From positions 202,330-266,329 of the forward strand of contig JAUCBJ010008896.1 in the NCBI GenBank assembly GCA_032718475.1: DNA of 64,000 nucleotides, in the 5' to 3' direction. Each line of letters begins with the position of its first letter. Positions within the stretch are counted from its first letter, which is position 1. Below, one piece after another: positions 78 through 49,869 of the stretch. The DNA is from Nemertoderma westbladi. Lineage: Eukaryota > Animalia > Xenacoelomorpha. Position numbers and translations under genes: made by a program. The notes under the pieces were generated by a model that worked only from the letters and a program-made list of their open reading frames with translations, did no database searches and was not told the origin of the DNA.

Positions 78-258
78 AGCTGCAGGCCATTTATTCTATT
101 AAATAAATACACAATGTTCTAGAACATTTTGTTTATCTCATAAGTAGCTTGGCAACAATGCAATGCCTACATGATAATACTATTTTATAGATATTCCCAC
201 ATAATCAAAATGTTCTAGAACATTGTGTATTTATTTAATAGAATAAATGGCCTGCAGC
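78..258. repeat. Inverted repeat / small foldback element
   Basis: gctgcaggccatttattctattaaataaatacacaatgttctagaacattttg (~79-131) is the reverse complement of ~206-258. Confidence 0.75.
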
Positions 259-330
259 GGAAGAAAATACATGCAAAATTCGAATGTCCATATCTCCGCT
301 ATTTCACAACCAAATTCAAATATTTTTACA

Positions 331-2402
331 GTCTTATCCGAAGGCTAGCCAATGGTAGTGTTGAATGGGTGAGTATACGAGCTCTCATGGCTAGTAGACT
401 GATTGCATTAAACAAGTGTCCTGGGGTACGTCCAATAGGGATCGGGGAATCACTAAGACGGGTTATGGGGAAGTGTATGGCTGATGCAACAGGTGGTGAC
501 GTGCAAGAACTCTGTGGTGTCGACCAACTGTGTAGTGGGTTGTCTGCTGGAATAGAGTCGGCAATACATGTTATTAGAGACCTCTGGGATGAACACACTG
601 GTCAGGGATGGGGAGTGTTATTAGTCGATGCGAAGAATGCTTTCAATTCCATCAATAGAATCACAGCTCTGTGGAATATTCGAATTTTCTGGCCTCGATG
701 TGCTCGATTCATTTTTAATACCTACCGAGGTTACTCAATCCTGGTTCTCCATGGGCCTTCCGGAACTCTCCATTTACTCAGCAGAGAAGGGTTCACACAG
801 GGAGACCCACTGTCAATGCTGGGATATGCTGTCGCTGTCTACCCCCTTATCCTCGAACTGAAATCTGACGAATATAATCAGGTATGGTTTGCAGATGATT
901 CAGAGAACGTGGGCGAATTGATAAAGCTTCAAGAGTGGTTCATTCGCCTCATAAAGCGTGGACCATCCTATGGGTATTTCCCAGAGCCTGATAAATGCAC
1001 CCTTGTGGTTGATAGTGGTGATGAGACAACTGCACGCCATTTATTCAGTGGACTCGGCATCAATGTGGACGGGAGTGGTGTGGTAAATGGTACCAGGACC
1101 CTGGGTGGATTCGTCGGTGATAACAGTCTCCTAAATCAGTATATATCTTTAAAGGTTTACAAGTGGGAGACTGACATAGAACGCCTTGCAGAGATTGCCG
1201 TCAACCAACCACAAGCCGCCTACTCAGCCATAACACGCTCACTGCAATTTCAATGGGGATTTCTCCAGCGAGTGATGCCATCTAGCACAAAGGAACTGTA
1301 TACACCAATAGAGAAGGCCTTGCGTGACAAGTTACTTCCAGCGATTATGGGTGGTTCAGTTTCCAATGTGGAACGGAAGCTGCTTTCCTTACCAGTAGGC
1401 AAAGGTGGCTTGGGAATCCCTGATCCGACTCAGACAGCAACTACCTCACTAGAGACTTCTCGATCCGCAACGCAAGTGGCATGTGAAGCAATCAAAAGTC
1501 GTTCAGAAATTAACTTTTATGAACATGGACGCTCCGTGAGGGAGGCACGGCAATCCCACTCCAAGCAGGCATGTGAACATGCCGACAACATCCTTGATTC
1601 GGTGCAGAATGAATTACCCCCATCTCGTCGACGAGCAGTTGGAAGGGCCTCATCATCGACTTCGAGTTGGCTGACAGCACTTCCGCTCAAGTTACAAAAC
1701 TTCGATCTGGCAGCCAATGAGTTTAGGGATGGACTCAGTCTTCGCTATGGACGTCCTCTAGTGGGTGCACCCACCAACTGTGATGGCTGCGGTTCAGCAT
1801 TCACTCTCTCGCACGCCTTGGATTGCAAGAAGGGCGGTTTAGTAACATTGCGTCACAACGAGGTGCGAGATGCCCAGGGTGAGCTCTTTAGCCTGGTATT
1901 CTCGGAGGCATCAGTAGAGAGAGAGCCCATCATCCGCGAGGCAGATGAGCAACACAACATGGAAGGACTGCGAGGTGACTTATCTGTACGGGGATTCTGG
2001 CAGCAGCAGAGGAGGGCGTTGTTTGATATTCGAGTTGTTGACTCTGACGCCCCCTCTTATGCTACCAGATCAGTACAGTCGCTATTGAGCAGTGCGGAAA
2101 GAGAGAAGAAAAACAAATATCTGGATGCTTGCGCCCAACGTCAGGCTGACTTCTCCCCTTTGGTTACCACAGTAGATGGCGTTCTGGGTACAGAGTACTC
2201 CATGGTCCTCCGCCGCCTGGCTGAGTTCCTCAGTACCAAGTGGGATAAACCCTACTCCCAGGTAATGTGCTGGGTCCGCACCAGACTGTCGTTTGCGACA
2301 CTGAGGGCCACCTGTGCCTGTTTTAGATCATCCAGGTCACGTTGGCGGTGCTCAGGTGTAACGGATGGAGCTGCACTACCTCGATTTACACTCGAGAACT
2401 AG
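331..2402 (+). CDS. Reverse transcriptase with CCHC finger and RLE endonuclease (N-truncated)
   Basis: Motifs VRPIGIGE, LLVDAKNAFNSI, EGFTQGDPLS, FADD, GGLGI, CDGCG..HALDC, RHNEVRD, RGDL..FDIRV..AEREKKNKY. The predicted start at 225 runs through unrelated flank. Confidence 0.85.
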
Positions 2403-12707: not shown

Positions 12708-13342
12708 TGTGACGGGATCAAAGGACCCCGACCGGGTAGATTGTTTCGTACGCGTCACCGCAGGCTGGGATGTCACTGATTGTTTGGCCGAGGCCGTTAG
12801 AGAAAACTGAATTGAGTTAATGTTGTTGTTCGACGGACTGATATGATATTGATGGCACAGTTGAAATGATATATTTAGTTAATTGGATGCAGAATAAGTG
12901 ATACCGGTAATAGTAACTAAACAGCCAATGTTGTTGATAGTGACGGTGAAGGTGAAACAACATCACCCATCTGCACTGAAACTGATAACTGAGTAAACTG
13001 AATGATAAACCAGTAGCAAGGAGATAATATACGACACACCAATATTACTTCACTGCTACTTTACTTTGGCCTCCTTCGCCCTTATTGGCTAATAACCTAC
13101 TTCACACCTTTCCACTCTCTGGGAGTGTTTCCCCCCTGTTGCTAGCCCCTGCTAGCTGTCTCCCCTTCCGAGGTGGTTTGACCTCTAACCTCCCTTTGTG
13201 TGTGGCTTTGGGGTTTGTACTGTCCCCAATGTTGGTTGTGATACGAGATTAGTTACTGCTAATCTCGTATCTCCAACATATTGCTGAAAATGCCACTATC
13301 CTATTTTATGAGGGTAATGCGGCGGAATTGAATCCGCTTACA
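12708..13342 (-). repeat. 3' LTR of the BEL element (635 bp)
   Basis: Reads TGTAAG...GTCACA on the minus strand, preceded by PPT gggggggag. Ends in gatcccgtcaca like the LTRs at 45356 and 51891. Confidence 0.85.
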
Positions 13343-14086
13343 CTCCCCCCCATGCTATCTTCCTGGTGAGAAGATAGCATCATCTACAAGTGCGCTTCAA
13401 TTCCGCTGGAACCAGATCTACTATCGGGTATGGGGTGGAGTTCTTTTCTCGGAGTAGGCTTTCCAGGCCGCTCCCTCTGGGTATGATATAACTACCCCTT
13501 CTTGGTGCAACCGAAACCTATGTTGCACCAAGACATCTGACGTCTCTGTTCGAGACAATTGTGGACTCCTCTCACACAATTTTTATATCTCCTCACTCTA
13601 AACTGACTCTAACTTTAGCTCCACTCTAACTCCACTCTACTCTATCTTACTCTCGGACCTCTCTGTCCCTTACTCTCCCTCTTACTGCTCGTTCCCCACA
13701 TTTTAAATTGCACCCGTATACTTTCCACACGCGTCAACACCTCCTCTCACTATCTTCCCTGTGCTCCTGTACGCAACCCTTACTTGTTTCGCTCTACTCC
13801 TTCCTGACGAGCTTCATCCTCCCTTTCCGTGCCGTCGCACTCAAGAAGTGTGATTCGTCTAGTGTCTCGTCCTCCTGTCATAGTCAATTGGTCCCCAGTC
13901 CCAGTAGCTAGTTGGAAAAGGTTACATGACTATAGTACTTACTTTGATTATATTGATTCTAATTATACTCTATTGATTATTACATACGTACATACTAATT
14001 GCACTTTTATTAAATTTGCACTTAGGAGTTCGTATTGCTTCGCATGTGGTGCCTTCCAGGCATCCCCACATCTCCCCCTCCAAGTC

Positions 14087-15031
14087 CTAGTTCGCTCCTC
14101 CCGTCTTTGGGAACCATCTCAGTTCCTTCCCTCTGTTGTCGTCCTGTCTCGGTCGCTTCCTTGTTGTCGTCGCTTCCTTGTTCTTATCCTCCTTAAGGCT
14201 CCTCATTCTCGCCGTTACCTCCTTGCTGATCCCCGTGGTCGATTCCTTGGGCGCTGGTGTTATTAGCTCCCGGTATCGCTTCGCAGGTGGCCCTTCTGAA
14301 TGCCCCTCCTGCTTCCCCCTAGTAGCGTCCCACAAGATCATCTTCATGGTCCGTGGCACATGCTCCGCCAGGAAATCTCTGAACTCTCCCCTGTTCTCTG
14401 GCGCCCATCTATCTAAATACCTCTGCGTATTGATGACTCCACCATACGATGCCGCCGTCGCTACTTCTTGATAAGTAAATGGAAGTCTCCTCTTAATGAT
14501 TTCCAGATGGGCCTCCTGGTTAATATTGAATAAACCCCAACGGAACTCCTGGGCCTTCATTCTCTGCCGCGTCATGACGCTGACGTTGGCCCACTCCTCA
14601 AAGATCTTAAACTTCTCCTCATCGTCCATCCAGTCGCACTGGTGCCCATAGTGCCCCCGGAAGTTACACTTAGAACACCGGTTGTGTAACCACGGACACG
14701 CCCCCATCCTGTGACTCGACTCGCGGCAGTAGAGGCAACTCGTCCCCTTCTGGAATCGATACAAACAGCTCTTTTCCTGGTGAGTAAGCCTCCCGCAGTA
14801 ATCGCAGCCGTGTATCAACACATCCCGCCCCAAGTTGTCTTTTGCCCCAAGCGGTCTCCTAGGTCTATGGAGCCGTTGGTAAGCAAACTTCTGGACGTTA
14901 ACGTCTCTGTCCATATCTACGTCCTCGTCTCGCCTTGGCATCGTCTCTCCAAACACTACACTGTGGTGCCGTTCCTGGTTGCTCGCCCAACCTGATGGTG
15001 CTCCCCGCGAAATCCATCGTCGGCTCTTCAT
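14087..15031 (-). CDS. Protein with three CCHC zinc knuckles (extra ORF of the BEL element; possibly fused to the upstream exonuclease)
   Basis: CDYCGRLTHQEKSC, CLYCRESSHRMGAC and CSKCNFRGHYGHQC, each C-x2-C-x4-H-x4-C. Confidence 0.75.
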   Translation of the reverse strand: MKSRRWISRGAPSGWASNQERHHSVVFGETMPRRDEDVDMDRDVNVQKFAYQRLHRPRRPLGAKDNLGRDVLIHGCDYCGRLTHQEKSCLYRFQKGTSCLYCRESSHRMGACPWLHNRCSKCNFRGHYGHQCDWMDDEEKFKIFEEWANVSVMTRQRMKAQEFRWGLFNINQEAHLEIIKRRLPFTYQEVATAASYGGVINTQRYLDRWAPENRGEFRDFLAEHVPRTMKMILWDATRGKQEGHSEGPPAKRYRELITPAPKESTTGISKEVTARMRSLKEDKNKEATTTRKRPRQDDNRGKELRWFPKTGGAN

Positions 15032-16665
15032 GCACCCAGGCCCGCTTGCCGGGTTTATCCCAGAAGGCCCTCGCCCCGCTGGCCGTCACCACTCCCCCGC
15101 CAACCCAGTCCGTGTCTGAGTGGCCGATCCTCTCGATGGGCGGCATCTCCACGAACTCGTCGTCATCCTCATCCCCCGCTGGGAGTGGATCCAAACCCGG
15201 TATCCCGGCAGACCCACTGTGTCCCTTCCCACCTTGGCTCTTGCCCGTAACTTTCCATCCTTCCAGTTCTCTCGGTCTCTTTCTCGCGAAATCGCCCTCA
15301 GAGCCCGCTGGCATGGGCATCGCTTGCAATCCTGATGTTATCTGTTTCGGCGATTCTTCCGTCCATTCTAGCTCCTGCCCCAGAGACTCACCCGAGCTCC
15401 CTGATCCCCACCGTAACTTGTCCAAGTTCTGGGCCTCGAACCCGTAGTCCTCTTCTCTAGCTTCCGCCTCTCTTTCGTCTGCCTCCCTCCTTTCTCGCCT
15501 GGCGATTTCTTCCAATCGCTTCTCCTCTAGTCTATCCACCTCTAGATTCTCCCACCTCTGATATGGCGTATCCACCTCCCTGTCTACTAGATATCGGCAG
15601 TTATAGTATACCGACTCGCCCTTCAGCCCCGGGTGGTCTGCCAGACCCTCAAAGGCCACCTTGAAGGCTCTTCTGTAGTTCAGGGGTGATCCCGACAGCA
15701 GAAATGCCGTTGGCTCTCTTCCGATAACCAAGGCCATGAATAGGTTTAGTAAACCTATCATTATCCAATCCTCCTGCAGGATATATTGCTTCTGATATAT
15801 CTTTATCACTCCTCTCCAGAATTGATACACCTCCTGTTTCCCTGGCCTCGCTCCCCACTTCAGCGAGTTCGCCAACTCCGCTCTGTACTCCTCCCTGAAT
15901 TTACCCCAGTCCATCGGCTTGTGGCAGACGAGCCCCATGAGCTGGCCCATCGCCACTGCTCCGCAATGTCCTGTATTCTCTACCAATCCCAACCCGGCTG
16001 GCCCTGTCATGGCCATGTAGACCGTTTGCATGTCCAGGAGGTTGGGGGTCTCCGGTCCGACGATCCTCTCCGCATCGTCGCGGATCGCCGATCCCACCTT
16101 CATCGTCGACTTGTCCCTCACTAGGTTCTGCACCGCCCTTGGCAACTGGTTCAACTTCGGCCCACTCTTCTTCCCATACGTTCCCAGATCAAACAGGAAT
16201 ATGTCCCCATTTGGCGCAGCCAAATGCAGAAGTATGGTCCTGGCCGAACCCGCCGACCCTCTTCTCAAACCCTCATCGTCTTCCATCGGTCCCTTCGTCG
16301 TCTAGGACCATGTATCCTCCCCTGCTGACAGACTCTACGAACCTCTTCCAGTCCTTTCTTGGTGATTCCCTCGGATACTTCGGTATCCCGAACTTCGCCT
16401 CGTCTCCCTTCACTACGTAATGGAAATGCTCGAGGATCGCGTTGTCTAGCGACGGCGTCCCGTAGGTCCCGACCAGCCTCCTCTCGTGCACCTCCCTGAA
16501 ATGGTCCTGCAGCGCTCGCGCCTTGTGACCCTTCTCTAACCGCTCGTAGTATCCCCTCGTCTTCTCCTCCGGATGCCTCTGGGTGAAATCTACTAGTATC
16601 TCCTTTCCACCTCTTTCCGCCTTTCTCTTCCTGACAAGTCTCTCCGCCATTACGAACTCTCCCAA
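14898..16665 (-). CDS. DEDDy (WRN/EXD/Mut-7-like) 3'-5' exonuclease-domain protein, one frameshift near 16285
   Basis: ExoI YMVLDDEG (end of the 16273-16665 ORF), then LLHLAAP..IFLFDL..LP..V..LV.D....KVGSAIRDD (ExoII), LLDMQ, W...IYQKQYILQED (ExoIII-like). Confidence 0.7.
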
Positions 16666-17099
16666 TCACTCACCCACAAGGTGGTGCCTTACCAAGGCTC
16701 AAAGTAGATGAGTGATGTAGTTAAGATGGTCTGTGCGGTCCGATAATGGCCTATCTCTCTCAGAACACTAGGTTTTATGTTATATTTCACCTATGTACCC
16801 ACCAAAGTACTAAATTTTCCTAAATTCCCTAAATCTGTCAGTTGCTTTTATTATGTTCTAGAATTTTCTGCCTACTGTTACCATAATTTGTTGAATTTTA
16901 TTTTAATACTAATTTTTAATCCTACTACTGTGCTATTGATACTCATAATGGATTATTTTTGTCTAAATAACCCCTATGGTTTGCATACAGGGTAGACTAG
17001 CTATTCCCTACTGTGCTAGTCCGCACCAGGTAACCTCCTGGCCCTGTATCAAACATTCTGACCTATTCTATGGGCTGCGCAGTACAGTAGTCTGTCTCG

Positions 17100-17510
17100 T
17101 ACTACCAGTACTCTACTAACGGTACTACGTACCCTCTTACACTCTAACTCTACTAACGGTACTACGTACCCTCCTACTCTCTAACTCTTACTAATGGTAC
17201 TACCTACCCTCTTACACTCTAACTCTTACTAACGGTACTACGTACCCTCTTACTCTCTAACTCTTACTAACGGTACTACGTACCCTCTTACTCTCTAACT
17301 CTTACTAACGGTACTATGTACCCTCTTACTCTCTAACTCTTAGTAACGGTACTACGTACCCTCTTACTCTATAATTCTTACTAACGGAACTACGTACCCT
17401 CTCATTCTCTAACTCTTACTAACGGTACTACGTACCCTCTTACACTCTAACTCTTACTAACTCTTACTAATGGTACTGCATACCCTCTTAATCTCTAACT
17501 CTTACTAACT
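17100..17510 (-). repeat. ~38-bp tandem array with ~10 GGTAC-x3-GTACC hairpin units
   Basis: Repeated ctcttactaacggtactacgtaccctcttactctctaa; homologous to 49870-50275. Confidence 0.9.
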
Positions 17511-17678
17511 TCTATCTGCCTACTTACTTACTACTACGTACTGTCTACTATTACTTTCTCTTTCTAACTTTCTACTATTTTATTATTTTTTTTTTATTTT
17601 TTTTTTTATATTTTGTGTGGGAAGGGCGTCTCGCCCTCAATCCCACCCCCCTCAGTCCAACACTTGGACGACTAAACT

Positions 17679-19018
17679 TTATGGTGCCCCTTCTAGTAGG
17701 CAGCACTTTCCCACAGCCCTCCTGTAGGTCTTCCTATCCTTTGCTCCTATCTTACCCCCTATCCGCACTTCCACCGATCGGACTCTTCTGTCCTCGTTGG
17801 GGTAAGTGTCTACTACTCTTGCTAGCCTCCACTGATTGTTGATGATTGCGTCGTCAGTGACGATCACTAAATCACCTTTCTTTAACTCTCTAGTGATGTT
17901 TCTCCACTTACTCCTCCTGTGTAATGTGGGTAGGTATTCCTCGACCCACCTCCTCCAGTACTCTGCGCTTATCGCCTTGGCGACTTTCCAACTCTGGCGG
18001 GAGTGTATGTCATCTGGGTCTACACCCTTCATGTCGATGGTCGCCGGCCTTTCCATCAGAAAGTGGCTCGGTGTTAGCACGTCTAGTGATTCCGGGTCGT
18101 CATTCTCTGGATATAGCGGTCTGCTATTAATGATTCCCTCACACCTAGCTAGCACCATTCTTAGAATGTCCTCTGTCACCATGTGGGTGTTCATCAACTT
18201 CGTCATCAGACGCTTGGAACTACCCACAAGTCTCTCGACGCATCCTAATGTATGTGACGCATACAGCGTCCTCCTTTCCCACTTCACCTGTCGTCTCCTC
18301 ATGGCTGCCCTGACCTCTTCTCCTTCTAGGATGTCCAAGGCCTCCGCCAACTCGTTCTCCACCCCCACAAAGTTGGTTCCATTGTCGGAATAGATCACTG
18401 CGATCGTCCCACCTTTGCGGTCTCTAAATCTCTCTAAGGCATTGATGAATCCCGATGCCGTAGCGTCCTGGGCGAGTTCTATTCCTACCGCCCTCGTGTT
18501 GTTACATACGAAGATGATGCCGTATCGTTTCTCCATGTGTCGCATCACCTTGATCTTAATCGGCCCAAACATGTCTACTCCGCAGTGCGTGAATGGCGGG
18601 TCATGCTGTCTCACCCTACTGGCCGGTAATGCATCTCCTGTACGGCCCTCTCCTTTCTCTTCCGTCGGCAGGTCTGGCATTGCCCCACTACCGCCTTCAC
18701 CTTCTTTCTTAGCTTCGCGAGCCAGAAGGTCCTCCGTATCTCTGTGTGGGTCTGGTTGGTGCCTCCGTGCAATATCGACTTGTGGGAGTCCCAAATGATC
18801 TGGTGGACTATCAGCGATCTGTTGGGGATGATAATGGGTTTTGGTGGGTTGATAAGGCTGTTGTTATTCAGCACTCTGGAGTTCATCACCAGAATCCCGT
18901 CATCATTGAGTTGTGGTGACAGCGTGATGAGCTCGCTGTCCCGACGAAGATGTTGCTGCTTGCTAACTCGATCCACTTCGTCGCAGCAGTTCTTTCTCTG
19001 TTCGTACCGTATCACGGC
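17679..19018 (-). pseudogene. BEL/Pao integrase (frameshift ~18610)
   Basis: H..HGG..CQTC (HHCC), PFTHCGVDMFGP, SDNGTNFVG, GCVERLVG, INSRPL, LTPSHFL, YWRRW..EYL, WRLARV. Confidence 0.92.
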
Positions 19019-19020
19019 CT

Positions 19021-19562
19021 AAACCACAGCCACAGCCACAGCCACAACCACAGCCACAACCACAACCACAGCCACAGCCACAACCACAGCCACAGCCACA
19101 ACCACAACCACAACCACAACCACAACCACAGCCACAGCCACAACCACAGCCACAGCCACAACCACAGCCACAACCACAGCCACAGCCACAACCACAGCCA
19201 CAGCCACAACCACAACCACAACCACAGCCACAGCCACAACCACAGCCACAGCCACAACCACAGCCACAACCACAGCCACAGCCACAACCACAGCCACAAC
19301 CACAACCACAGCCACAGCCACAACCATAGCCACAACCATAGCCACAACCACAGCCACAGCCACAACCACAACCACAACCACAGCCACAGCCACGGCCACA
19401 GCCACAGCCACAGCCACAGCCACAACCACAACCACAGCCACAGCCACAACCACAGCCACAACCACAACCACAGCCACAGCCCCACAACCACAGCCACAAC
19501 CACAGCCACAACCACAGCCACAACCACAACCACAGCCACAGCCATAGCCCCAACCACAACCA
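19021..19562 (+). repeat. (CCACAG/CCACAA)n hexamer microsatellite
   Basis: Direct inspection. Confidence 0.95.
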
Positions 19563-19960
19563 CTTCCTAGCTCTAGACTGAATCTAGTGTACACTAGCTT
19601 TGACTCTCCCAGCTATAGTGATAGTATGCAACCTTGGGAGTTAATGTGCGGTCTTATGAGTAAAGGGCAAGAGATTAGACTTCATGTTGCCTCCATTGAT
19701 TCACTCTTCTTAACTTTATAAAATAACTCCACCCTTATTTAAAGTTTTAAAAGTTATGACTTAGTCGACTAATTTTCCAAAATATATTATAAAAAACATA
19801 TAATTTCTTGAATAAATAGACCTAATAGCAATAAATATTGTTGGCAAATACATTTATAATACTAATATAATAATTAAGGATAAATACTCCTAATACCAAT
19901 ATAATTGTTATGGATAAATAGTTCTAATACTATTATGAAAGGAACTCAAACAAACAAATG

Positions 19961-21025
19961 TCAATAGTGTCCTCCTGCGCGGGCATATACTGTACGAGAG
20001 TTTTTCATCATAGGTCTTCGAAAATAAGTAAAAGCTGGTTGATTTTCTTTACTTTCATCTTCCTCATTAACCAACTGTTTCTTAATTTTATTCAATTGTT
20101 CATTAATTTTCAGTAATTTACTTTTATTTCCCAGAACCTGTCTTAATATCTCTTCTCTATTTTCCTCATTTTCTTCCATTTGTTTAATAAATTTCCGCAT
20201 TTGATTTTTGTTTCCTAATATTTGTCTCAATATCTCTTCTTTATTTTCATCATTCTCTTCTAAATGTTTAATAAATTTCTGTAATTTAATTTTACTTCCT
20301 AGAACTTGGGTCAATGTCACCTCTTTATTTTCTTCATTTTCCTTCAAATGTTTAATAATTTTCCGCAATTTATTCTTATTTCCAAGTAATTGTCTCAATA
20401 TTTCCTTATTATTATCATTTTCATCATCTTCTTCACTTTCCTGACCTTCACTTTCTTCGTCCTCTTCCTGACCTTCACTTTCTTCGTCCTCTTCCTGACC
20501 TTCACTTTCTTCATCCTCTTTCTGACCTTCACTTTCGTCATCCTCTTCCTGTTCTTCACTTTCTTCATCCTCTTCCTGTTCTTCATTTTCTTCATTCTCT
20601 TCCTGACCTTCGCTTTCTTCACCCTCTTCCTGACCTTCACTTTCTTCGTCATCTTCTGACCTTCATTCTCAACCTCACTCTCTTCAACTTCATCCTGACC
20701 CTCACTATTTTCATTCTCCATCTCATCGTCCTCTTCTTCTTCATCTTCCTCACTCAAATTTTCATCATTTTCTAGGGGTAACTGTTTTTGTATCCCTTTC
20801 AAAATATTCATAACTTTATGAAATTTATTTTCCATTGTCTGTTTTATCTTTAATATATCACGCTCAACTCTCTTTTTCTTTTCTCTTCATAAAAATATCT
20901 CGGATTTTTTAATTTCTTTGGTAATGGTCCATTACACCTTCCTTTCTATGTATACTCATATGGCGGGATATACTGTCTCGTCTCATTTCTTTATTACAAA
21001 CCAAACATCTTTCATAACTAGGCAT
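19961..21025 (-). pseudogene. Zn-finger + acidic/coiled-coil protein, paralog of 24602-25246
   Basis: Starts atgcctagttatgaaagatgtttggtttgt (MPSYERCLVC); near-identical to the 24602 start; frameshifted; repeated ILRQ.LGNK.KL.K units. Confidence 0.75.
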
Positions 21026-24601: not shown

Positions 24602-25246
24602 ATGCCTAGCTATGAAAAATGCATGGTTTGTGATAAAGAATTGAGACGAGACAATATATCCCGCCATATGAGTATACATAGAAAGGAAGGTGTAATGGAA
24701 CCTTCTCCAAAGAAATTAAAAAATAATGATGATATTTTTAGTGAAGATGAGAACAAAAAGAGAGTTGAGAGTGACTTTCTAGAGATTAAATAAATGATGA
24801 AATATAAATTTGAGAAAATCATGAATATTTTGAAAAATATACAGAAACAGCCACCTAGTGAAAAGGATGATGAGAGTGAGGAAGATGATAAATCAGAGGA
24901 AAGTGAAAAGGTTGAGAATGATGAAACAGAGAGTGAGATAGAGGAAGAAGAAAATGAGAGTGGTGATGAACAAAATGAGAGCGAGAAAGAAGTCGAGGAA
25001 CATGAAAGTGGGGAGGAGAATGATGAGGAGATATTAAGACATGTATTAGGAATTAAAAATAAATTGCAGAAAATAATTAGACAATTGAATGAAATGCAGA
25101 AACATTCGCATAAGGAGAGTGATAATGATGGAAATGAGAGTGATGAGGATGAATTGGAGGAGAGTAATGCTGGTAGTGTAGAAGAAGCTGAGGAGAGTAG
25201 CGACGGCAGTGAGGAAGAATCAGAGGAGAATGACAATGAAAATTGA
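24602..25246 (+). pseudogene. C2H2-like finger + highly acidic protein (in-frame stop at ~24791)
   Basis: CMVC..RH..IH, KKLK NLS-like motif, D/E-rich tracts. Confidence 0.7.
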
Positions 25247-25536: not shown

Positions 25537-27645
25537 GATTGATTGATTGATTGTTTATTGTCAGCACAGTAATACATTTATATACATTATTACACCAATA
25601 AAAACATAATACAAGATAAGATCAATGTAGTGCAGACCGTGGGTAAAATAAATAATTATACATTCGAATATAGGCCGTGTGAGACTGATAAGTACGTACA
25701 TAGTAGATTATGTCATTAAAATAGCACAATAAGTTAATAAGGGAGGATATATAAATAAATAATTAATCCACAAATAACTAGCGCCTCGTGAGTGTCCTTC
25801 AAAAATTACAATAGATCAATAAATTATCGAAGCGTAAAATTCAATAATCATTCCCCATTTGGTAAATCATTTTTGCTACATTTATTTGGTCGTCCATGTC
25901 AAATAGGGTGGTCAGATCGTTCCAGTTACCTTTAACCGATAATCTAGATTCCGCCGTTTTTGGGCACACGGTGATGATGTGTTCCTCCGTCTGAACTGCT
26001 CCACATCCACACATTCGATTATCCGGTTTTACTCTCGCCCATCTCATTTTTTCGACTGGAAAGTTATGGCTCCCCAGACGAAACCGGGACCACGCGATTC
26101 GGTGACGTTCTGGAACGTTACAGTTGTTGTAAAGAGGTGGCGGTGACAATGTCGGATTCATCAACTTGTAGAGATGCCGTTTCGTGGTCTTAGATTTAGA
26201 GACACGGTCTTTAAGTAATTCGTTTTGTTTTCTAATGTAGTTCAATGGAATTGATTTAGAGCGTTCCATTTCAGAATACATCGGAGTGTTATTTTCTCTA
26301 GCGATTTCCAGAGCAGTTTGTAAGGGAGAATCATCGACTGGTTTAAATTTTATGAGATACTTCCTCTGTTTATCGCGAATTAGGGACTCAAATTCTGGGA
26401 GGTCGAGTTCGATTAGGCATAATTCCCCGCATGTGGTTGGTCGTACACCTAATAATAAACGAACCAAGGACATATATATTTTAGATATAGGTGCTAGGGA
26501 TCCGCCGAACCATGTTTCACAGCCATATGTGATTGAGGATAAAACAGCTGCTTCGAATACTTTCCGTTTTATAACAAATGGGAGATCGGGGTTTTTACTG
26601 ATAAAAGTAGAGAACTTGAGAAGATGGCACTGTTTCTCGGAGGCGTGTAGTGCGATCGCTGTTGAGATTGCACCATCAGCCGAAATTGGCGAGCCCAGGT
26701 AAGTGTAGGAATCCGTGTGTTCGATTTGTTTGTCTCCGATGGAAAATGCACGCTTGTCACAGTCGTTTCCATTTATAACTATAAATTTAGTTTTTTTGAT
26801 ATTTATAATCATCCCAGACTGGGAGCAAAAGACTTTCAGAACGTTTAATTTCTCAATTATTTTATCTCTGGTTGTACCGAGTATGGCTGTGTCATCCATC
26901 AGTAAAATGCTATGAAGCTTTTTCAACCAATCGTCCCATGGTAAATTTCGTAGTGCTCGTACAAAAAAATCTATTACAATTACAAATAGGAAACCGCTTC
27001 CTGGGGAACCCTGACGGACTCCTTTGTTACAAATTACACGAAGATTGTTAATATTGGCAATAGTTAACTTGTACATCGCTTGGAGGCAGCTGAGCATCTT
27101 ATTACCACATCCTAAACTTTTTAATGTTTGGAACATGAAGGTCCTCTTGACGTTGTCGTATGCTTTCTCGTAGTCCACGAATGTAATATAGAGGATTTTC
27201 TTATACACTTTGGCATAATCACACAGGATACGAATAGCTAGGATCTGTTCAATGCAACCACGCCCTTTACTTGCCCCAGCCTGTTCTGGGAGCGGTTTAT
27301 ACCATGAATGGAGTCTAACAGTGAGCACCGTGTCAAAAAGCTTTGGTAAGCAGTTCATTATACTGATGCCTCTGTAATTAGTTGGTAAGAAACGGCAGCC
27401 CTTTTTGAAAATAGATATCAGTGTAGCGTGGGCCCACATTACTGGGTAGATTCCTGAATTAAAAACTAAATTAAATAGCAGAGATATAGAAATTAACCAA
27501 TTAAGTGGGAGCGCTTTGATGTAATCTGCAGAGAAGACCATCTGGCCCTGAAGCCTTACGTGAACTCAATTTTGAAGCAGCAGCTGCAACTTCGTTAATT
27601 GATATCTCTTCATCTAATAGTGGTATTGACAAATTTGTTGTAATG
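25537..27645 (-). mobile_element. 5'-truncated RTEX-like LINE with (CAAT)n tail
   Basis: ORF 25841-27541: NYRGISI, FVDYEKAYD, GVRQG, LMDD, YLG, RFRLGSH..CGC..EEH..C. AATAAA and (caat)n at 25537-25560 on the minus strand. Confidence 0.88.
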
Positions 27646-27663
27646 TTGTGAGGGAGAAGTGGC

Positions 27664-29597
27664 CTCACTCACTCACTCTCTCACTCTCTCAATCTCTCAC
27701 TCTCTCACTCTCTCACTCTCTCACTCTCTCAATCTCTCACTCTCTCACTCTCTCACTCTCTCACTCTCTCACTCCCTCACTCCCTCACTCCCTCACTCCC
27801 TCACTCCCTCACTCCCTCACTCCCTCACTCCCTCACTCCCTCACTCCATCACTCCCTCACTCACTCACTCACTCACTCACTCACTCACTCACTCCCTCAC
27901 TCCCTCACTCACTCACTCACTCACTCACTCACTCACTCACTCACTCACTCACTCCCTCACTCACTCACTCACTCACTCCCTCACTCCCTCACTCCCTCAC
28001 TCCCTCACTCCCTCACTCCCTCACTCCCTCACTCACTCACTCACTCACTCCCTCACTCCCTCACTCCCTCACTCCCTCACTCACTCACTCACTCACTCAC
28101 TCACTCACTCACTCACTCACTCACTCACTCACTCACTCACTCACTCACTCTCTCACTCTCTCACTCTCTCACTCCCTCACTCCCTCACTCCCTCACTCCC
28201 TCACTCCCTCACTCCCTCACACCCTCACTCCCTCACTCCCTCACTCCCTCACTCCCTCACTCCCTCACTCACTCACTCACTCACTCACTCACTCACTCAC
28301 TCACTCACTCACTCACTCACTCACTCACTCCCTCACTCCCTCACTCCCTCACTCACTCACTCACTCACTCACTCACTCACTCACTCACTCACTCACTCAC
28401 TCACTCACTCACTCACTCACTCACTCACTCACTCACTCACTCACTCACTCACTCACTCACTCACTCACTCACTCACTCACTCACTCACTCCCTCACTCCC
28501 TCACTCCCTCACTCCCTCACTCCCTCACTCCCTCACTCCCTCACTCCCTCACTCCCTCACTCCCTCACTCCCTCACTCCCTCACTCCCTCACTCCCTCAC
28601 TCCCTCACTCCCTCACTCCCTCACTCCCTCACTCCCTCACTCCCTCACTCCCTCACTCCCTCACTCCCTCACTCCCTCACTCCCTCACTCCCTCACTCCC
28701 TCACTCCCTCACTCCCTCACTCCCTCACTCCCTCAATCCCTCACTCCCTCACTCCCTCACTCACTCACTCACTCTCTCACTCACTCACTCACTCACTCAC
28801 TCACTCACTCACTCCCTCCCTCACTCCCTCACTCCCTCACTCCCTCACTCCCTCACTCCCTCACTCCCTCACTCCCTCACTCCCTCACTCCCTCACTCCC
28901 TCACTCCCTCACTCCCTCACTCCCTCACTCACTCACTCACTCACTCCCTCACTCCCTCACTCCCTCACTCCCTCACTCACTCACTCACTCACTCACTCAC
29001 TCACTCACTCACTCACTCACTCACTCACTCACTCACTCACTCACTCACTCACTCACTCACTCACTCACTCACTCACTCACTCACTCACTCACTCACTCAC
29101 TCACTCCCACCCTCACTCCCTCACTCCCTCATTCCCTCACTCACTCCCTCACTCCCTCACTCCCTCACTCCCTCACTCACTCACTCACTCACTCACTCAC
29201 TCACTCACTCACTCACTCACTCACTCACTCACTCACTCACTCACTCACTCACTCACTCACTCACTCACTCACTCACACACTCACTCACTCACTCACTCAC
29301 TCACTCCATCACTCACTCACTCCATCACTCACTCACTCCCTCCTTCACTCCCTCACTCCCTCACTCCCTCACTCCCTCACTCCCTCACTCCCTCAATCCC
29401 TCACTCCCTCACTCCCTCACTCCCCCACTCCCTCTCTCCCTCAATCCCTCACCCCCTCACTCCCTCATTCCCTCACTTACTCACTCCCTCACTCCCACCC
29501 TCACTCCCTCACTCCCTCACTCACTCCCTCACTCCCTCACTCCCTCACTCCCTCAATCCTTCAATCCCGCACCCCATCACTCCCTCACTCACTCCCT

Positions 29598-29670
<73 letters not shown>

Positions 29671-29720
29671 CCCTCACTCCCTCCCTCCCTCCCTCCCTCC
29701 CTCCCCCACTCCTGCCTCAC
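27664..29720 (+). repeat. (CTCA)n/(CTCACTCC)n/(CT)n microsatellite
   Basis: Direct inspection. Confidence 0.97.
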
Positions 29721-31122
<1,402 letters not shown>

Positions 31123-32873: not shown

Positions 32874-33206
32874 TCAATCCCAAGCTTCTTCTCTCCATTC
32901 CGTCGGCCATTCGCATTGTTCTTGTTCTTGTTGTACTTTTCCCTCATTCTCTCCATATTGATTCTTTAACTCTTTCTCAATTCTGAACTCATGAGCTTGC
33001 CAACATAGTGGTAACCCATTCCTATAATGACAATTCTTTATGTGAAACTCCTTTTCTTCTTTTGGAAAACTGTGCACTGGATCGTTGGGGCACTCTTTGA
33101 CAAACTCAACCCCCGGCTTTCTACATATTATTAGATGCCTAAGCACTCGAGCATCGGCGACTCTGTGGGAAGGGTTGTAAGGACATATTTGATATGTCAC
33201 CTCCAT
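32874..33206 (-). CDS. Gtsf1: GTSF1-like double CHHC protein, 110 aa (divergent paralog)
   Basis: CPYNPSH..RHLIICRK, CPNDPVH..FHIKNC, tail EWPTEWREEAWD. Confidence 0.85.
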   Translation of the reverse strand: MEVTYQICPYNPSHRVADARVLRHLIICRKPGVEFVKECPNDPVHSFPKEEKEFHIKNCHYRNGLPLCWQAHEFRIEKELKNQYGENEGKVQQEQEQCEWPTEWREEAWD

Positions 33207-34157
33207 TGTTAGTTTCTATATTTAAGAATAACGTGTTGTAGAATAAGAATAAGAATAAGATTTTACTAGGAATATTAAGAAGTTTTACTAAGGCAGTAAA
33301 AACAATTAAGATTTAACTTTACGTGATTTTTATTTATATAGAAAAATCCACCTTAACATTTAGCACACCACAAACAAGGCCGTAGTTTTAGGTATGGTAT
33401 GGCAAGCACTAGGGATTATGCATTACTTCAAACATAAAACTACAGTATCTAGTATAGAGATGGTTGGGGATTATTTTAACATATGGTTTTTTGGGTAGGG
33501 CTAATACTTGGAGCGTGCGATCATGCGTGCAGGATGCTTCATAAAGTACAATGTGAAAGAATTCAATCTATTGCAAACCAGATGTTTATTGTAATTTTCT
33601 CAGACGATTTGACAATGGTCTACATGATAACGAAGCTGGAGGTTTGAATAATTTAAAATTCGTGGCAGCCCCATGTTGGCATACAGTATAACTCAACATA
33701 GGATTCAATGGGATTAGTCATGCTACGTCTAATAAGAGCCCAAACAGTCTCAGATTATTGGGGGACTGAGCCAAGGCCAAACTGGCCCACATATTTTCCT
33801 GAAACGGTAATTTATGTTTTTGGCCCCGCTCGCATCTTTATATTTCATTCTATCATTCTATTGTACGAAAAAAATAATACAAATGTACTGTATATTGTAT
33901 TGTATGGTACCTATTGTATTGTATATTTTATCTACTGTACCTACTGTAGTACTACTATCTATTCATTGCGCGTCCCATGTCTGATTGATTTGTGTCAAAT
34001 TAAATTGCCTTTGACAACATTATTTGATTCAAATCGATCGATTAAACAATTAATTAATTGTTTAATCGACCAATTAATTAATTAATTAATGACCTACTTA
34101 ACACCTAAGGTGTGAAGTTGGTCCAACTGTCGCAGAAAAGGGGTAACCATTACTACT

Positions 34158-35538
34158 CAGTACTATTTGGATAATGACAGCCCAATTTATATTTGTTTTA
34201 TAGACTCTTCTAAAGCCTTCGACTTAGTTAATCACTATGAATTATTCTCTAAATTAGTTGATCGCAATATTTCTACTTTTCATATTAGGATTATCAGGTA
34301 TTGGTATCGTTTTCAAACTCTTACTTTACTTTGGGGCAGGTGCACTTCTAGTAGTTTTACGGTAACAAACGGGACAAAACAAGGGGGGATTCTATCTGGT
34401 TATCTGTATGCTGTTTACGTAGACGACCTTAGTAGGGAACTTAACAATACTAATGTAGGTTGTCAACTTAATAACCGTAGGTGTAAGTAATCACTTAATG
34501 TACACTGATGACCTGTCTTTAGTTTCTAATTCCATAGCTGGTCTTAGAAAACTTATTGATACTTACATAGACTTTGCAGATAGGCACTCCATCATTATAA
34601 ATATTAAGAAATCTAAGTTCATGACCTATACACCAAAATTATACAATTTATATATATATATATAGCCTTGTAGATGGTATCAGTATTTAATGGTAAATCA
34701 ATAGAAACTGTAAGTAAATACAAGTACTTAGGCCATACTTTCCACAACACAACTGATGACAATTATAATATCCTTAACCAACTGTCAAGTCTTTATAGAA
34801 GAGGAAACTTTTTAATACGTAAATTTAGCTATTGCTCAAAAATTGTCAACATAAAACTTTTCAGGTCACTTTGCACTCAGATCTACTGTAACTCCCTATG
34901 GGCGAGAAGTAATTTTTCACTCTCCATATATAGTAAATTCCGCATTGCATATAATAATATTATTAGAAAACTTTTTGGTTTTAGTTACGATTCCAGCGTA
35001 TCTTACATGTGTGGTATACTGAATGTACCCAAATTAGTACATATCTGTCACAATGCGCAGAAATCATTATTGAGATGCATGAGATCATCAGAGAATAGCC
35101 TTGTACAGTCAGTTGCCTTAGAAACGCTTCAAACGAGTCACATATTTGGTATAAGTCTGTGCAGGGAATAATTTGCTTACAGTTCTTATATTGTTATGTG
35201 TTATGTTATAGTTATTTTATTGTCCTTTGTTCTAATATTATATATTTTCCATAATTATACCTATTATACCCTCTATATTTATTATATTATATACTTACAC
35301 CCTTTTAGTATAAATTTCTAGTATAAATAATACTTAACATTTGCATTTATTTTTATTTTTTTTTTTTGTCCTTGCTCGGATATTTTCTTGTTTCCCTTCC
35401 GTTGTAATTATTACCTATTATATTATATTATAATTATTATGTTATAATTATACTACAAATATTATTATCTAGCCACTGGGATTTTACTGTACTATATGGG
35501 CTATGTATGCCTGGATTAAAGATTAATAATAATAATAA
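34158..35538 (+). mobile_element. CR1/L2-group LINE, right piece with 3' UTR and (AAT)n tail
   Basis: FIDSSKAFDLV, NGTKQGGILS, YTDDL, KYLGH, RIAYNN; ends gattaataataataataa, where polB resumes. Confidence 0.85.
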
Positions 35539-37164: not shown

Positions 37165-37484
37165 ATTATACTAACTATATTATACTAATATACGTGTAGC
37201 GTATATTAGACTGATTTGAATATATAGGCCGGCTACCGGTTTTACGGCAGTCTGGTTAGATTGGACTGGCAGAACCGTTCCATCATTACATATGGCGCAG
37301 TTTCAGTACTTACCTACTTGCCCATGCAGTACTGCACTTTGTACACGGCCTAACTCACAACTCTGCAATTGCTACCGCACTTTATTCATATTACCTTAAT
37401 AAATAATATCGGCAATTAATTTCGTAATAAACTATTTCTGTATTTGCTGATACCGTGATACGGATATTTGATATTGGATAGGCT

Positions 37485-40400
37485 ATGGCAAGAGCAAACG
37501 ACAACCGCGACCCATTCTCCTTCATTCTACGAAACTCGCCACCCCCATTCGACCTGGAATCGGAATGCTCCACCTGGGAGCTGTGGCAAGACGAGTGGGA
37601 CACTTTCCTTGTCACCTCTGGACTTGGAAACTTACACGTCACTGACTCAGCCGATCCACCTGACCCAACCGTATCGGCAGCTCTTCTAGCGGCAACAAAC
37701 CGCATACGGCGGGCAACTCTGACCACCGCCTTCTCCCGCGCAACGAACGCAGTCGTCAAGGGTTTGGGCCTGTCCGCCATCGACAACGCAGACACCGATG
37801 TTATCATCCAACATCTCGGCGTCCATATCGACGGCGGGACCAATAAACGCATCCACCGGCAGGAACTGTCGCGCCGATCCCGCCTACTTGAGGAAACTCC
37901 TGAGACATTCCTAGTTAACCTCCGGGATATCGCTTCGAAATGCGGATTCGAGGCACTCCCGACTCCGGATGCCCATCGCAACGACAGACTGCTCGACCAA
38001 TTTATCGCCGGCTTCGGCGATAAAGAGGTTACTGAGCACCTACTCTGGCTCCCCGCAGGAAGTTCGATCACCGATGCCCTCAACCTCGCCCAAACCGTGT
38101 GGACCGCGCGGAAGGATGCAGCCTCACTCTCCTTCTCCTCCACACCGGCACCTACGGCAGCTAAGGCGGAGGCAAAGTCGGATAAACGACGGAAAGGGAA
38201 CCGGAGCCCTCGCTCCAACGCTATCCCAACAGGCCTGACCTGCACCAAATGCGGCTATCCCCCACACGGACCGGGCCAATGTTGCCCCGGTACGGACGCG
38301 CGGTGCCGCCACTGTAAACTGGTCGGACACTACGACAGGATGTGTCCCAGACCCTTCCCCCCACAGGCCCACGCAGCGGCCGCACCCCCGGCACCATGCT
38401 ACATGGAGGACCACACCGCAACCAACAATGCCAAAGTCTGGTCGGTCCTGGTTGGAACCGAACTCGAGAACGCCCCGGTTGTTTCATCAACCGAACAACT
38501 CGAATCACTAGAGACCGTCACCCTGGGCTTCCAAGTCTACAAGAACCCGGCATTTGGAATTCCGGAACTCCAGTTTCTTTCGGACTCTGGGGCCAACATC
38601 TCGGCTATTCCGTTCTGGTTATTCACCGCGTTTGGTGGACAGATCGGAAACCTCCGCAAACCCTTCCCCAATCCACAAGCCCCGAAACTCGCCAACGGCA
38701 GCCGGACTGGATGGGAATTCAAGGGACTGTTCACCGCTACGATCCAGTGCCACGACCTCCACACCGCCTGTACAACCGACATCTGGGTGCTGGAGGGACT
38801 CCAGCAGCCACTCCTGTCCCGCAAGTCCTGCTTTACCCTAAGGATTCTCAGCAGCCCAATCCTTAGAGGCGGGTCGCCTGCACCCCCTGTCGTGGCGTCC
38901 TCCACAGGCCCCACCACACCGCCACCGACAGAGCTTACTACCCCATCCAAAGCTACAATTACCACACCCACCGTAGACCGTGATATAGCTTGGCGGGCCC
39001 TGGAAACCCGCTTCCCGCGCCCCCTATCGGGTGTCTGCAGGGTGATGAAGGGTGGGGACATTACTATCAAACTCACTCTGGGCGCGAAACCTAAAAACTC
39101 ATACGCCAATAGGGCCATCCCAGCGAACCTAGAGGAGGCCTTCAACAGGGAACTGGATGAACAGGTGGCCATGGGGATTCTAGAACCAGCCAACGACGAA
39201 AACTGCCCCAGCGACTGGCTGAGCCCCATGGTTATTACCCGTAAAAAAGATGGTGAATCGGTCCGAATTACCGTCGACCTCCGGGAACTCAACCTGAACA
39301 CCGTCCGCCCAACCTACTTCTCCCCATCCCCGTTCCATGTCGTTTCGCGGATCCCGCCCACCGCCGGTGTATTCACCGTTATAGACGGATTAAAGGGGTT
39401 CCACCAGGTCAACTTGGACCCCCGGAGTCGGGGTCTTACAACATTCATCACACCGCGAGGCCGCTACCGCTACTGCCGCATGCCCATGGGCTGGCACGGC
39501 AGCTCGGATTTTTTTAATGCCCGCATGGCCCATGCACTCCGGGGGATCCCCAACATCGGCCGCATCGTGGAGGACATTATAATTTACACGGAAATAGCGG
39601 AGGAACACAACAACGCAGTAGCCAAAGTCCTGACTGCCTGCGACGAGGCCGATATATCCATAAACCCGAAGAAGGTGCAGTTCTGCCTTCCAGAGGTTAA
39701 ATTCGGTGGATATATCGTCTCCAAAGGGCAATACCACATCGACCCAGACCTCACCGAGGACCTCCGCCAATTCCCGGTCCCCACGAACCGACACCAACTT
39801 CGGTCGTTCTTCGGCCTAGCCCAACAGTTGGGCAACTCCACGGCCGAGATCACCCGCCTCGTGGAACCACTACGTGGGTTGAACTCAAGCCGCACAGCTT
39901 GGTTGTGGCTCCCCGAACACCAGGCGGCGTTCGAGGCCACCCGGTCCGCGCTGTCTGCCCCCCACTACTTGTCCGGTTTCCAGCTGGACCGCAGAACCGA
40001 GCTGCTCACCAACGCCTCCTATCTCAACGGACTTGGTTTCCTCCTCCGGCAGTGGGATTCGGCCATGAACCGCTGGCTAACGGTCCAGTGCGGCTCCCGG
40101 ACCCTCGCCAAACACGAGGCCAACTGGTCCGGGATGGCCGAGCTGGAGGCCCTCGGGGCGGCCTGGGCGGCCCACAAGTGCCGCTACTTTCTCGACGGCC
40201 TCTGTCATTTCGATCTCGTAACCGACTGCAGCCCCCTGATACCGATTCTAAACGAGCGACGGTTGGATCAAGTCACGAATGACTGGTTATTAAAACTCAA
40301 AACGGCTTTATCACGGTTTTCCTTCACCGCCCGACACCAGAAGGGGGCTAAACACGTGGTTGCTGATGCCTTCTCCCGGGCCGCAATCCACCCCCCGGTC

Positions 40401-40520
40401 CCCACCGACTTAATCCTGACCCAGGAAGACGAGACGGACCGCGAATACATAATAAATGCGGCCATCGGCGCGATCCCAACCCTCGACTCCCGGGACGCCT
40501 GTCTCCAGGTAATTCGTGAG
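37485..40520 (+). CDS. Gag-Pol (Gag with CCHC, protease, RT, RNase H)
   Basis: CRHCKLVGHYDRMC, LSDSGANIS, VRITVDLRELN, RMPMG, IVEDIII, LRSFFGL, TNAS, ELEAL, ADAFSR. Confidence 0.9.
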
Positions 40521-45355: not shown

Positions 45356-46073
45356 TGTTAGCTTATCCAATTCCGCTAACATGAACCCACAAAGTAAGCC
45401 GTTGAGCAATATTGGGAGCACGAGGTTGATTACCAATCAACCTCGTGTCAGCCCAGTAAACGGGGACAATATGCCCCAAAGGAGACACACACAATAAGGG
45501 TCAGGGGCCAAACCCCCAACAGAGAGAGAACAACAGGGGCAACGGGAAACACACCAGGGAAGGTGAAAGGGCGAGAAGTGGGATATTAGCCAATGGGGGG
45601 ACAGCATCGACTAGGTACAGTAATATGGCCAACTGTGCAGTACATATATTACCTGTTGGTGCTTCCCTATTCAGTTTAGTTTACTCAGTCAGATCAGTAG
45701 GGTGGAACGGGGACTTCTGTCACCGTCCGCTACCGCCATCATACTTATCTACCGGTAACCGTGTCATACTATACTGTGCTATATCAGACTATTATACCTT
45801 TATACATATTACCGAACATCAGAACTCTTTTACCTTTCACACACGGCGGGGACGCGTGGATAGAAAACCCAACGGATAAACCGGGATCCGTAGATCCCGT
45901 CACAGTGACAGAATCAGATCCACCCAGCTGCCCTGACAGTGACAGAATCAGATCCGCCCAGCTGCCCTGACAGTGATAGAATCCTAGCAGCTGCCCTAAC
46001 AGTCTGACAGTGACAGAACTAGATCCAACCAACTGGCCTGACAGACTGTGGCTGCCAGCCACCAAAGACGAAG

Positions 46074-49643: not shown

Positions 49644-49869
49644 AGGACGTATAGGAGGGCAGCGGGAGAGTGCCTACTGGAAGAAGGGGCACCTGAGAGT
49701 TTTTAGTCGTCCAAAGTTTTGGACTGAGGGGGGTGGGAATGAGGGCGAGACGCCCTTCCCACGCACAAAATATAAAATAATTATTTAATTAAAAATAAGA
49801 AAATAATTAAATAATAGAGTAGGTAGAAGTTAGGTAGTAAGAGTTAGTTAGTTAGTTAGTTAGTTAAAG

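Follow-up and report, generated by a model that had tools for sequence, protein, structure and literature searches.

A third gene with a probable RNase D-like domain and three CCHC zinc knuckles in a BEL/Pao retrotransposon family of Nemertoderma westbladi

A stretch of 64,000 nucleotides from Nemertoderma westbladi (Xenacoelomorpha; GenBank assembly GCA_032718475.1, contig JAUCBJ010008896.1, positions 202,330 to 266,329 of the forward strand), called the window here, was analysed around a fragment of a BEL/Pao retrotransposon on its minus strand. An additional gene, which we call ORF3 (open reading frame 3), lies between the integrase of this fragment and its 3' long terminal repeat (LTR). 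The whole of the evidence was best explained if ORF3 is an accessory gene of the BEL/Pao element whose product joins an RNase D-like domain to zinc knuckles and acts on the 3' ends of the element's RNA or complementary DNA (cDNA). We gave this explanation a probability of about 0.55. The reality of the gene, its position in the element and its spread through a large family were observed directly, and the nature of its first domain was graded lower.

Three co-oriented, overlapping frames were found on the minus strand at 16665-16273 (130 aa), 16301-14898 (467 aa) and 15085-14087 (332 aa). Each was shifted by +1 relative to the frame before it. ORF3 extends from 16650 to 14087, with its first ATG at 16650 and an in-frame stop ahead of this ATG. 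Its pieces A, B and C (121 + 441 + 290 codons; Table 1) are free of stops. Other copies were followed in four public sequencing runs of the same organism (X1 to X4, from three studies), which contain part of the stretch with word shares of 0.44, 0.41, 0.39 and 0.06. None of the runs is recorded as RNA. Contigs were matched at a threshold of 85% likeness, and contig depth was not used as copy number. At the first frame overlap (16286), contigs with a one-base difference in length made up 303 of 312, 174 of 222 and 21 of 41 of the depth in X1, X2 and X3 (5, 4 and 1 contigs, respectively). At 14960 the corresponding depths were 342/518, 84/132, 117/190 and 18/18 in the four runs, and further length-differing contigs were found at 14962 (139/561, 27/175 and 58/323). 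Together, such contigs held most of the depth at 14960/14962 in all four runs. The one-base differences at both overlaps brought the adjoining frames into register. Because register was restored in this way and the three pieces were stop-free, ORF3 of the family is a real, single open reading frame of about 854 codons. This agreed with a preliminary description of the stretch, which had suggested that the overlapping frames might be one protein of about 850 aa with two frameshifts. An intron at the A/B overlap was also considered and rejected, since the sole GT...AG pair there spans 29 nt and the other copies resolve the overlap by length. The copy in the window is dead, with two breaks in ORF3, one break in the integrase and the 5' half lost.

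The number of contigs on 13000-19100 was 8790, 8127, 14714 and 126 in X1 to X4, at 85-100% likeness and ranging from above 99% to below 90%. On the ORF3 core alone there were 2226, 2086, 3107 and 9 contigs, with up to 66 distinct contigs per site. Cover was lower at 16876-17079 and 15244-15447. Because thousands of diverged contigs cover ORF3, the gene is family-wide and present in many copies, and it is not a one-off insertion, the alternative that had been raised when this DNA was first described. One contig joins 18847 to 14250, so that integrase and ORF3 are linked in another, internally deleted copy. Sequence variation among the copies was also informative. The best-supported variant places within ORF3 (43 rows, out of 983 and 285 places in two tables) fell at the third codon position in 24 of 43 cases (binomial p 0.002), and 21 were synonymous and 22 nonsynonymous. 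This excess of third positions fits purifying selection while the family spread. The differences on 13000-19100 that set the window copy apart from nearly all others were mostly T or A in the window and C or G elsewhere, and they fit C-to-T decay of the window copy.

The integrase upstream of ORF3 (19018-17682, minus strand) is of BEL/Pao type. Its relatives numbered 911 proteins at E <= 1e-5, and identity was 31-41% (best 41%) among the 120 listed. These 120 were long polyproteins with PF18701 in 120/120 and PF05380, the Pao peptidase, in 114/120, and on the basis of these relatives the integrase was assigned to BEL/Pao. The H2C2 piece and the core stand in different frames, which means that the integrase of the window copy is also frameshifted. 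After the integrase stop follow, in order, an A-rich run, 38-nt repeats, a 425-nt AT-rich spacer, the ORF3 frames, a 744-nt trailer, a polypurine tract and the LTR. The extra gene between integrase and 3' LTR of a BEL/Pao element, as it had been proposed at the outset, was thereby confirmed by the domain matches and the complete LTR (Table 1). Only the integrase end of the element is present; gag, protease, reverse transcriptase and 5' LTR of the BEL/Pao element were found nowhere in the window, and the ORF3-bearing copy has neither a 5' LTR nor a target duplication there. A (CCACAG)n array of about 90 units (19024-19563) adjoins the integrase N-terminus, where the 5' half of the element is missing.

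The placement of ORF3 was examined against a second LTR element of the window, E2 (Table 1), which shares three blocks with the BEL/Pao fragment. The first block consists of the last bases of the integrase frame and the 38-nt repeats (76%; E2 49643-50295). The second is the pre-LTR block with the polypurine tract (87%), of which the E2 part spans the border between its internal region and 3' LTR. The third is the LTR, with 550 of 715 positions identical in a local alignment. E2 is probably a non-autonomous relative of the BEL/Pao fragment, and it gave no reverse transcriptase or integrase match. ORF3 lies inside the 3' region of the element because it is flanked by two blocks that also occur in E2, the 38-nt repeats and the pre-LTR block. 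Base composition was compared as well. The purine share of the coding strand was 0.61-0.64 in the integrase, ORF3, the trailer and E2. It was 0.47 in a Gypsy-like pol (37482-41667) and 0.48-0.49 in host-like DNA of the window, unlike the element of ORF3.

We then turned to the domains of the ORF3 protein. The first lies mostly in the middle frame (ORF B) and resembles the RNase D family of DEDDy exonucleases. In the ESM Atlas, residues 1-250 of the middle frame had PF01612 in 25 of the 30 nearest clusters, and the first match scored 0.92 with 175 shared features (tool mark 170). The N-terminal 109 residues alone gave PF01612 in 28 of 30 neighbours, with a recognition of 3343. The neighbours were small eukaryotic PF01612 proteins. 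E. coli RNase D, which consists of PF01612 plus two HRDC domains, had been chosen beforehand as the archetype, and its residues 1-205 were used for Smith-Waterman alignment. The score was 57 compared with 33.8 ± 5.9. Of 3000 shuffled sequences, 12 scored as high, and so did 4 of the 669 windows taken from real BEL/Pao proteins. ORF B was the best of the 44 window ORFs of at least 150 aa in this comparison. In the case of the C-terminal half only, none of 1000 shuffles reached the score, and the alignment was colinear through PMxWG, EEY, W-x-ARP and Y-x3-[D/E]-x-W.

The motifs could be followed along the domain. The ExoI string has D-x-E on a hydrophobic strand, YMVLDDEG, of which VLDDEG was read directly at 16308-16291. 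It follows a helix as in RNase D, and its correspondence with ALDTE of RNase D was judged by eye only. The ExoII candidate is RDDAE within 16100-16062. Here a local alignment places LVRDKSTMKVGSAIRDDAE opposite ILRDPSITKFLHAGSEDLE of RNase D, a pairing that is not significant alone. For ExoIII, QYILQEDW at 15788-15765 pairs with EYAAADVW of RNase D, so that the Tyr is kept and Asp is replaced by Glu (Tyr-x3-Glu). Two further candidate ExoIII strings lie upstream of QYILQEDW. The catalytic set likely reads D, E, D, Glu-for-Asp and Tyr. These results suggested, with good but not full confidence, that the domain has a DEDDy-like fold.

Several results weighed against this assignment. With Pfam, neither ORF B nor its first 250 residues nor the X-joined read-through had a match at E up to 10, in a setting where the HMMER filters remove most matches above about 0.1. 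NCBIfam, PHROGs and the PDB sequences gave no match for the exonuclease part, and none of 7997 candidates scored in a word-indexed search. A phmmer search of 1.84 billion protein representatives returned 4 matches, all of them tandem-repeat or tetratricopeptide-like proteins matching in 8-17 stretches, and these were rejected as spurious. Scans of metagenome and viral contigs for ORF3 gave 28 and 3 pattern matches, none of which was confirmed. When RNase D was searched with phmmer against 639 ORF fragments of the window, ORF B came first, but with E 2.1. Against RNase D, the N-terminal half alone fell short of significance (165 of 1000 shuffles), and likeness to the Pol I exonuclease was absent (511 of 1000 shuffles reached the score). 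Likeness to HRDC after the domain was likewise not found (130 of 1000). Comparison by hhalign with a shallow RNase D alignment (8 of 120 sequences, all enterobacterial and 88-100% alike) gave a probability of 2.9%. The single-sequence AlphaFold2 model was unusable, with a mean predicted local distance difference test (pLDDT) of 37.7 and a predicted template modelling score (pTM) of 0.25. Hence profile comparison and structure prediction, by which the fold was to be checked according to the preliminary description, did not bear it out.

The supporting results also have their own weaknesses. The two Atlas queries overlap in sequence and are hence not independent. The restriction to the C-terminal half was picked post hoc, after the alignment had been seen. 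The placement of ExoIII is ambiguous, with three Tyr-containing candidates within 45 residues, and the window copy has private changes nearby at 15787, 15808 and 15818. On the side of the element, no full-length copy was seen, and the linkage of ORF3 to gag-pol rests on the window and the one contig joint. E2, although related, has no counterpart of ORF3, and a second copy of ORF3 was not found elsewhere in the window. The preliminary description had spoken of ExoI/II/III-like motifs and of a DEDDy exonuclease. The motifs are present as short strings (VLDDEG, RDDAE, QYILQEDW), but no profile library recognises the domain. The DEDDy assignment was favoured by the Atlas neighbours and the RNase D alignment, whereas the profile searches were negative and the AlphaFold model gave no usable fold.

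The second part of the protein was clearer. Three exact C-x2-C-x4-H-x4-C knuckles, as had been reported from the sequence at first, were found within 57 residues at 14806-14765 (CDYCGRLTHQEKSC), 14737-14696 (CLYCRESSHRMGAC) and 14677-14636 (CSKCNFRGHYGHQC). Pfam zf-CCHC_3 (0.013) and zf-CCHC_4 (0.054) matched ORF3 with 15.8 and 13.6 bits, below the cut-off of 27. Because the three knuckles are canonical, the ORF3 protein likely binds nucleic acid. The earlier proposal of an RNA-binding nuclease was thus supported in part, with its binding half likely and its nuclease half dependent on the likely fold. On the N-terminal side of the knuckles there is a charged, heptad-like stretch that resembles a coiled coil (15542-15447) and a low-complexity linker. 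About 160 residues follow on the C-terminal side, together with a basic RKRPRQDD stretch (14161-14138).

ORF3 was compared with known systems. It shares with E. coli RNase D and the Rrp6/WRN-exo/Mut-7 group the same order of motifs, namely ExoI D-x-E, ExoII Asp, PMxWG, W-x-ARP and ExoIII Tyr. It differs from RNase D in the lack of a hidden Markov model match and of HRDC likeness, in the change from Asp to Glu in ExoIII, in insertions before ExoIII and in the fusion to knuckles. BEL/Pao elements with an env-like third ORF are also known, such as Tas, Cer7 and roo. Their backbone is likewise of BEL/Pao type, and they too have another ORF following the integrase. However, their third ORFs encode envelope-like membrane proteins, whereas ORF3 shows no such sign and resembles an enzyme or binder of nucleic acid. 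PF01612 was found in none of the 120 listed integrase relatives (of 911). No report of a BEL/Pao element with an exonuclease was found in Creative Commons-licensed PMC papers and bioRxiv, a search in which the slash spelling may have been missed in part.

An ORF3 of the DEDDy kind is itself already published, although in print it is known only from Gypsy-related rotifer elements and Athena. A paper on bdelloid rotifers describes it in the elements Juno and Vesta, and in Athena/Terminon elements (Rodriguez, Kenefick, Arkhipova 2017, PMC5408684). These elements resemble the present case in that an RNase D-like exonuclease takes the place of env, encoded by an extra ORF located after pol and ahead of the 3' LTR (PMC5408684). 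There, Cys/His zinc motifs are reported for some of the rotifer ORFs, and one catalytic acid is conservatively changed, from DEDD to DEED (PMC5408684). The rotifer elements are described as Ty3/gypsy-related and low-copy, with strong homology to DEDDy enzymes (PMC5408684). In contrast, ORF3 of N. westbladi stands with a BEL/Pao integrase, is very abundant, and has three canonical CCHC knuckles and a long C-terminal part. It also differs in that no profile recognised it and no sequence relative was found in the protein, metagenome or viral searches. A later opinion paper counts a DnaQ-like exonuclease as one of the accessory domains known from LTR elements (PMC6338049). What is new here is the BEL/Pao backbone, the triple knuckle, the absence of an HRDC signal, and a divergence that hides the domain from every profile library searched. 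Third genes that do not encode an envelope reveal needs of LTR retroelements beyond gag and pol. An exonuclease-like ORF3 in BEL/Pao, linked to three nucleocapsid-type knuckles and with its frame preserved through a very large family, would argue that nucleases acting on 3' ends recur as an accessory function under selection and are more than a rotifer oddity. The abundant natural copies provide a set for working out fold, activity and substrate. They are also a warning that such genes can escape Pfam-based annotation of transposons through divergence.

If ORF3 is an accessory gene of the element, its product might work as follows. The knuckles, which are of nucleocapsid type, would bind single-stranded RNA or cDNA of the element in the replication complex. 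The bound nucleic acid would be brought to the 3'-5' exonuclease-like cleft, where 3' ends would be trimmed; this step presumes catalysis by the ORF3 domain. The 3' ends of the element's own RNA, primer or cDNA are suggested as substrate only tentatively. Third genes in such a position are usually expressed from a spliced subgenomic RNA. ORF3 may be expressed in the same manner, and the spacer has a candidate splice acceptor near 16700, where a pyrimidine tract precedes an AG. Alternatively, an internal promoter in the AT-rich spacer could drive a unit that ends after the AATAAA at 14011-14006. The basic C-terminal stretch might serve nuclear entry.

Among the other explanations, the one that survived best was that ORF3 keeps the exonuclease fold as a non-catalytic RNA-binding adaptor, which would tether or chaperone the element's RNA through its knuckles and a dead cleft. 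EXD1, Egalitarian and Maelstrom have been described as adaptors of this type. In the sole significant alignment, Glu stands opposite the last catalytic Asp of RNase D, and the other candidate ExoIII strings hold no acid. The extreme divergence, with no profile match, points in the same direction. The rotifer paper also draws attention to DEDD derivatives that are inactive but still bind RNA (PMC5408684). However, ExoI D-x-E, ExoII Asp and ExoIII Tyr are all present as strings, and the change from Asp to Glu is conservative. In addition, the private changes of the window copy lie near ExoIII, so the state of the family may differ. We regarded the adaptor as unlikely.

Trimming or destruction of small RNAs had been suggested in the preliminary description. 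In a counter-defence role of this kind, ORF3 would be a nuclease that trims or destroys host PIWI-interacting or small interfering RNAs aimed at the element. Cellular DEDDy relatives act on small RNAs, and the case rests on this analogy only, together with the great abundance of the family in the organism. However, the knuckles and the likeness to RNase D would suit work on RNA, primer or cDNA of the element itself no less well, and this role was judged quite unlikely. In a stronger form of it, an RNase D/Rrp6-like nuclease was taken up by a BEL/Pao lineage, fused to the lineage's own knuckles and put to use as an active counter-defence that shortens or removes host small guide RNAs; this appeared more doubtful still. 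If it were true, it would help to explain the thousands of copies of the family, and exonuclease third genes would have arisen convergently as a weapon of LTR retroelements in general, of Gypsy type in rotifers and of BEL/Pao type here.

The likeness to exonucleases could also be spurious. In that case ORF3 would be a gag- or nucleocapsid-like structural or chaperone protein after pol, with an unassigned fold. The profile, PDB and large-scale sequence searches were all negative and the AlphaFold model failed, as given above. By the figures of the tool itself, 4-10 of 100 shuffled proteins attain an Atlas score of 0.9, and BEL/Pao Gag proteins typically carry three CCHC knuckles. On the other hand, separate evidence came from the two halves of the domain: the N-terminal half had 28 of 30 PF01612 neighbours, 175 shared features and the recognition of 3343, and the C-terminal half aligns to RNase D (p about 0.004) with motifs in the right order. 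Pfam also found no match in ORF3 to the BEL/Pao gag family PF03564. A spurious likeness was considered about as improbable as counter-defence in its simpler form.

The weakest explanation was that the cassette is a passenger, which would have inserted as a separate unit into the 3' untranslated region of a single BEL/Pao lineage and be carried along with no benefit to the element. Its origin could be a gene captured from the host, or a nested element that brought its own promoter and poly(A) signal. The direct repeat on both sides, the AT-rich DNA on both sides, the AATAAA between stop and LTR and the lack of ORF3 in the related E2 would suit this reading, but it is very unlikely. The cassette lacks its own LTRs, inverted repeats and poly(A) tail, it matches the integrase in base composition, and an open frame with codon-position constraint across many copies would hardly last in a passenger. 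Termini of a nested element were looked for around ORF3, and no LTR or inverted repeat was found apart from the weak direct repeat. This repeat of 18/16 nt (Table 1) matched at 88.9% over 18 nt by blastn (E 0.15), and it may be due to chance or be a trace of gene acquisition. The repeat ends in GGCACCA, like the 3' end of a transfer RNA. The accessory gene with an RNase D-like domain and knuckles was retained as the preferred explanation.

Table 1. Coordinates of ORF3, its host element and the neighbouring element E2 in the window (position 1 is the first letter of the window).
Feature	Position	Strand	Details
Integrase, N-terminal zinc-binding piece	19018-18611	-	Pfam Integrase_H2C2 3.9e-11, zf-H2C2 5.5e-5
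Integrase core and C-terminal DUF5641	18863-17679	-	DUF5641 8.1e-24 (84 bits, cut-off 23.1); rve 9.4e-4, below cut-off
38-nt tandem repeats, 3' untranslated region	17110..17510	-	Tandem Repeats Finder (TRF) period 38, 9.3 copies, 92% matches; about 9-10 units
AT-rich spacer upstream of ORF3	16666..17090	-	GC 0.39; contigs of other copies cover 16628-16800 and 16840-17004
Direct repeat, upstream copy	16681..16698	-	GCCTTGGTAAGGCACCAC; 33 nt ahead of ATG
ORF3 piece A	16288..16650	-	start codon, N-terminal region, helix, ExoI strand
RNase D-like (DEDDy) domain, likely	15700..16353	-	Atlas neighbours, alignment to E. coli RNase D
First frame break (A/B overlap)	16286	-	window copy one base off in length compared with most other copies
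ORF3 piece B	14963..16285	-	remaining exonuclease-like domain, charged coiled-coil-like stretch, low-complexity linker
Second frame break (B/C overlap)	14960..14962	-	one-base length difference from most other copies
ORF3 piece C	14087..14959	-	three CCHC knuckles, helical C-terminal region, basic stretch; stop 14089-14087
Direct repeat, downstream copy	14046..14061	-	GCCTGGAAGGCACCAC; 26 nt past stop codon
AATAAA	14006..14011	-	76 nt past ORF3 stop, still ahead of 3' LTR
Pre-LTR block with polypurine tract	13343..13497	-	G-rich tract GGGGGGGAG at 13351-13343; 87% alike to E2 51734-51911
3' LTR	12708..13342	-	complete, 635 nt, TGT...ACA
E2, complete LTR element	45356-52439	+	7.1 kb; LTRs 549 nt, 99.6% alike; 5-bp target duplication AAATT; young

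The window contains further repeats and mobile elements. Two ORFs of E2, at 46023-46643 and 47997-49643, had no family match, and the latter ends in one CCHC knuckle. The Gypsy-like pol lies at 37482-41670 (plus strand, GC 0.60), with RVT_1 (7e-19) and RT_RNaseH (1.3e-13), after which a second frame gives integrase H2C2 and rve. This pol is unlike the BEL/Pao fragment in base composition. Three other reverse-transcriptase ORFs were found at 25844-27565 (minus), 34116-34487 (plus) and 219-2399 (plus), with RVT_1 at 3.3e-29, 5.9e-13 and 0.0052, respectively. These three had no integrase or RNase H match, and they probably belong to non-LTR elements. At 53379-53795 (minus) there is a fragment of a P-loop ATPase with weak matches that include a poxvirus A32-like protein (3.7e-4), and it may be a Maverick/Polinton remnant. 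A tandem array of 3.5 kb at 27663-31120 consists of about 431 copies of the 8-nt unit CTCACTCA and gives false long ORFs in three frames. The ORF at 32877-33215 (minus) encodes two U11-48K-like CHHC zinc fingers (3.6e-12). The ORF at 19964-20662 (minus) encodes an acidic repeat (EEDEESEGQ...) with 27-nt and 84-nt tandem repeats, and a related stretch was observed at 24627-25104.

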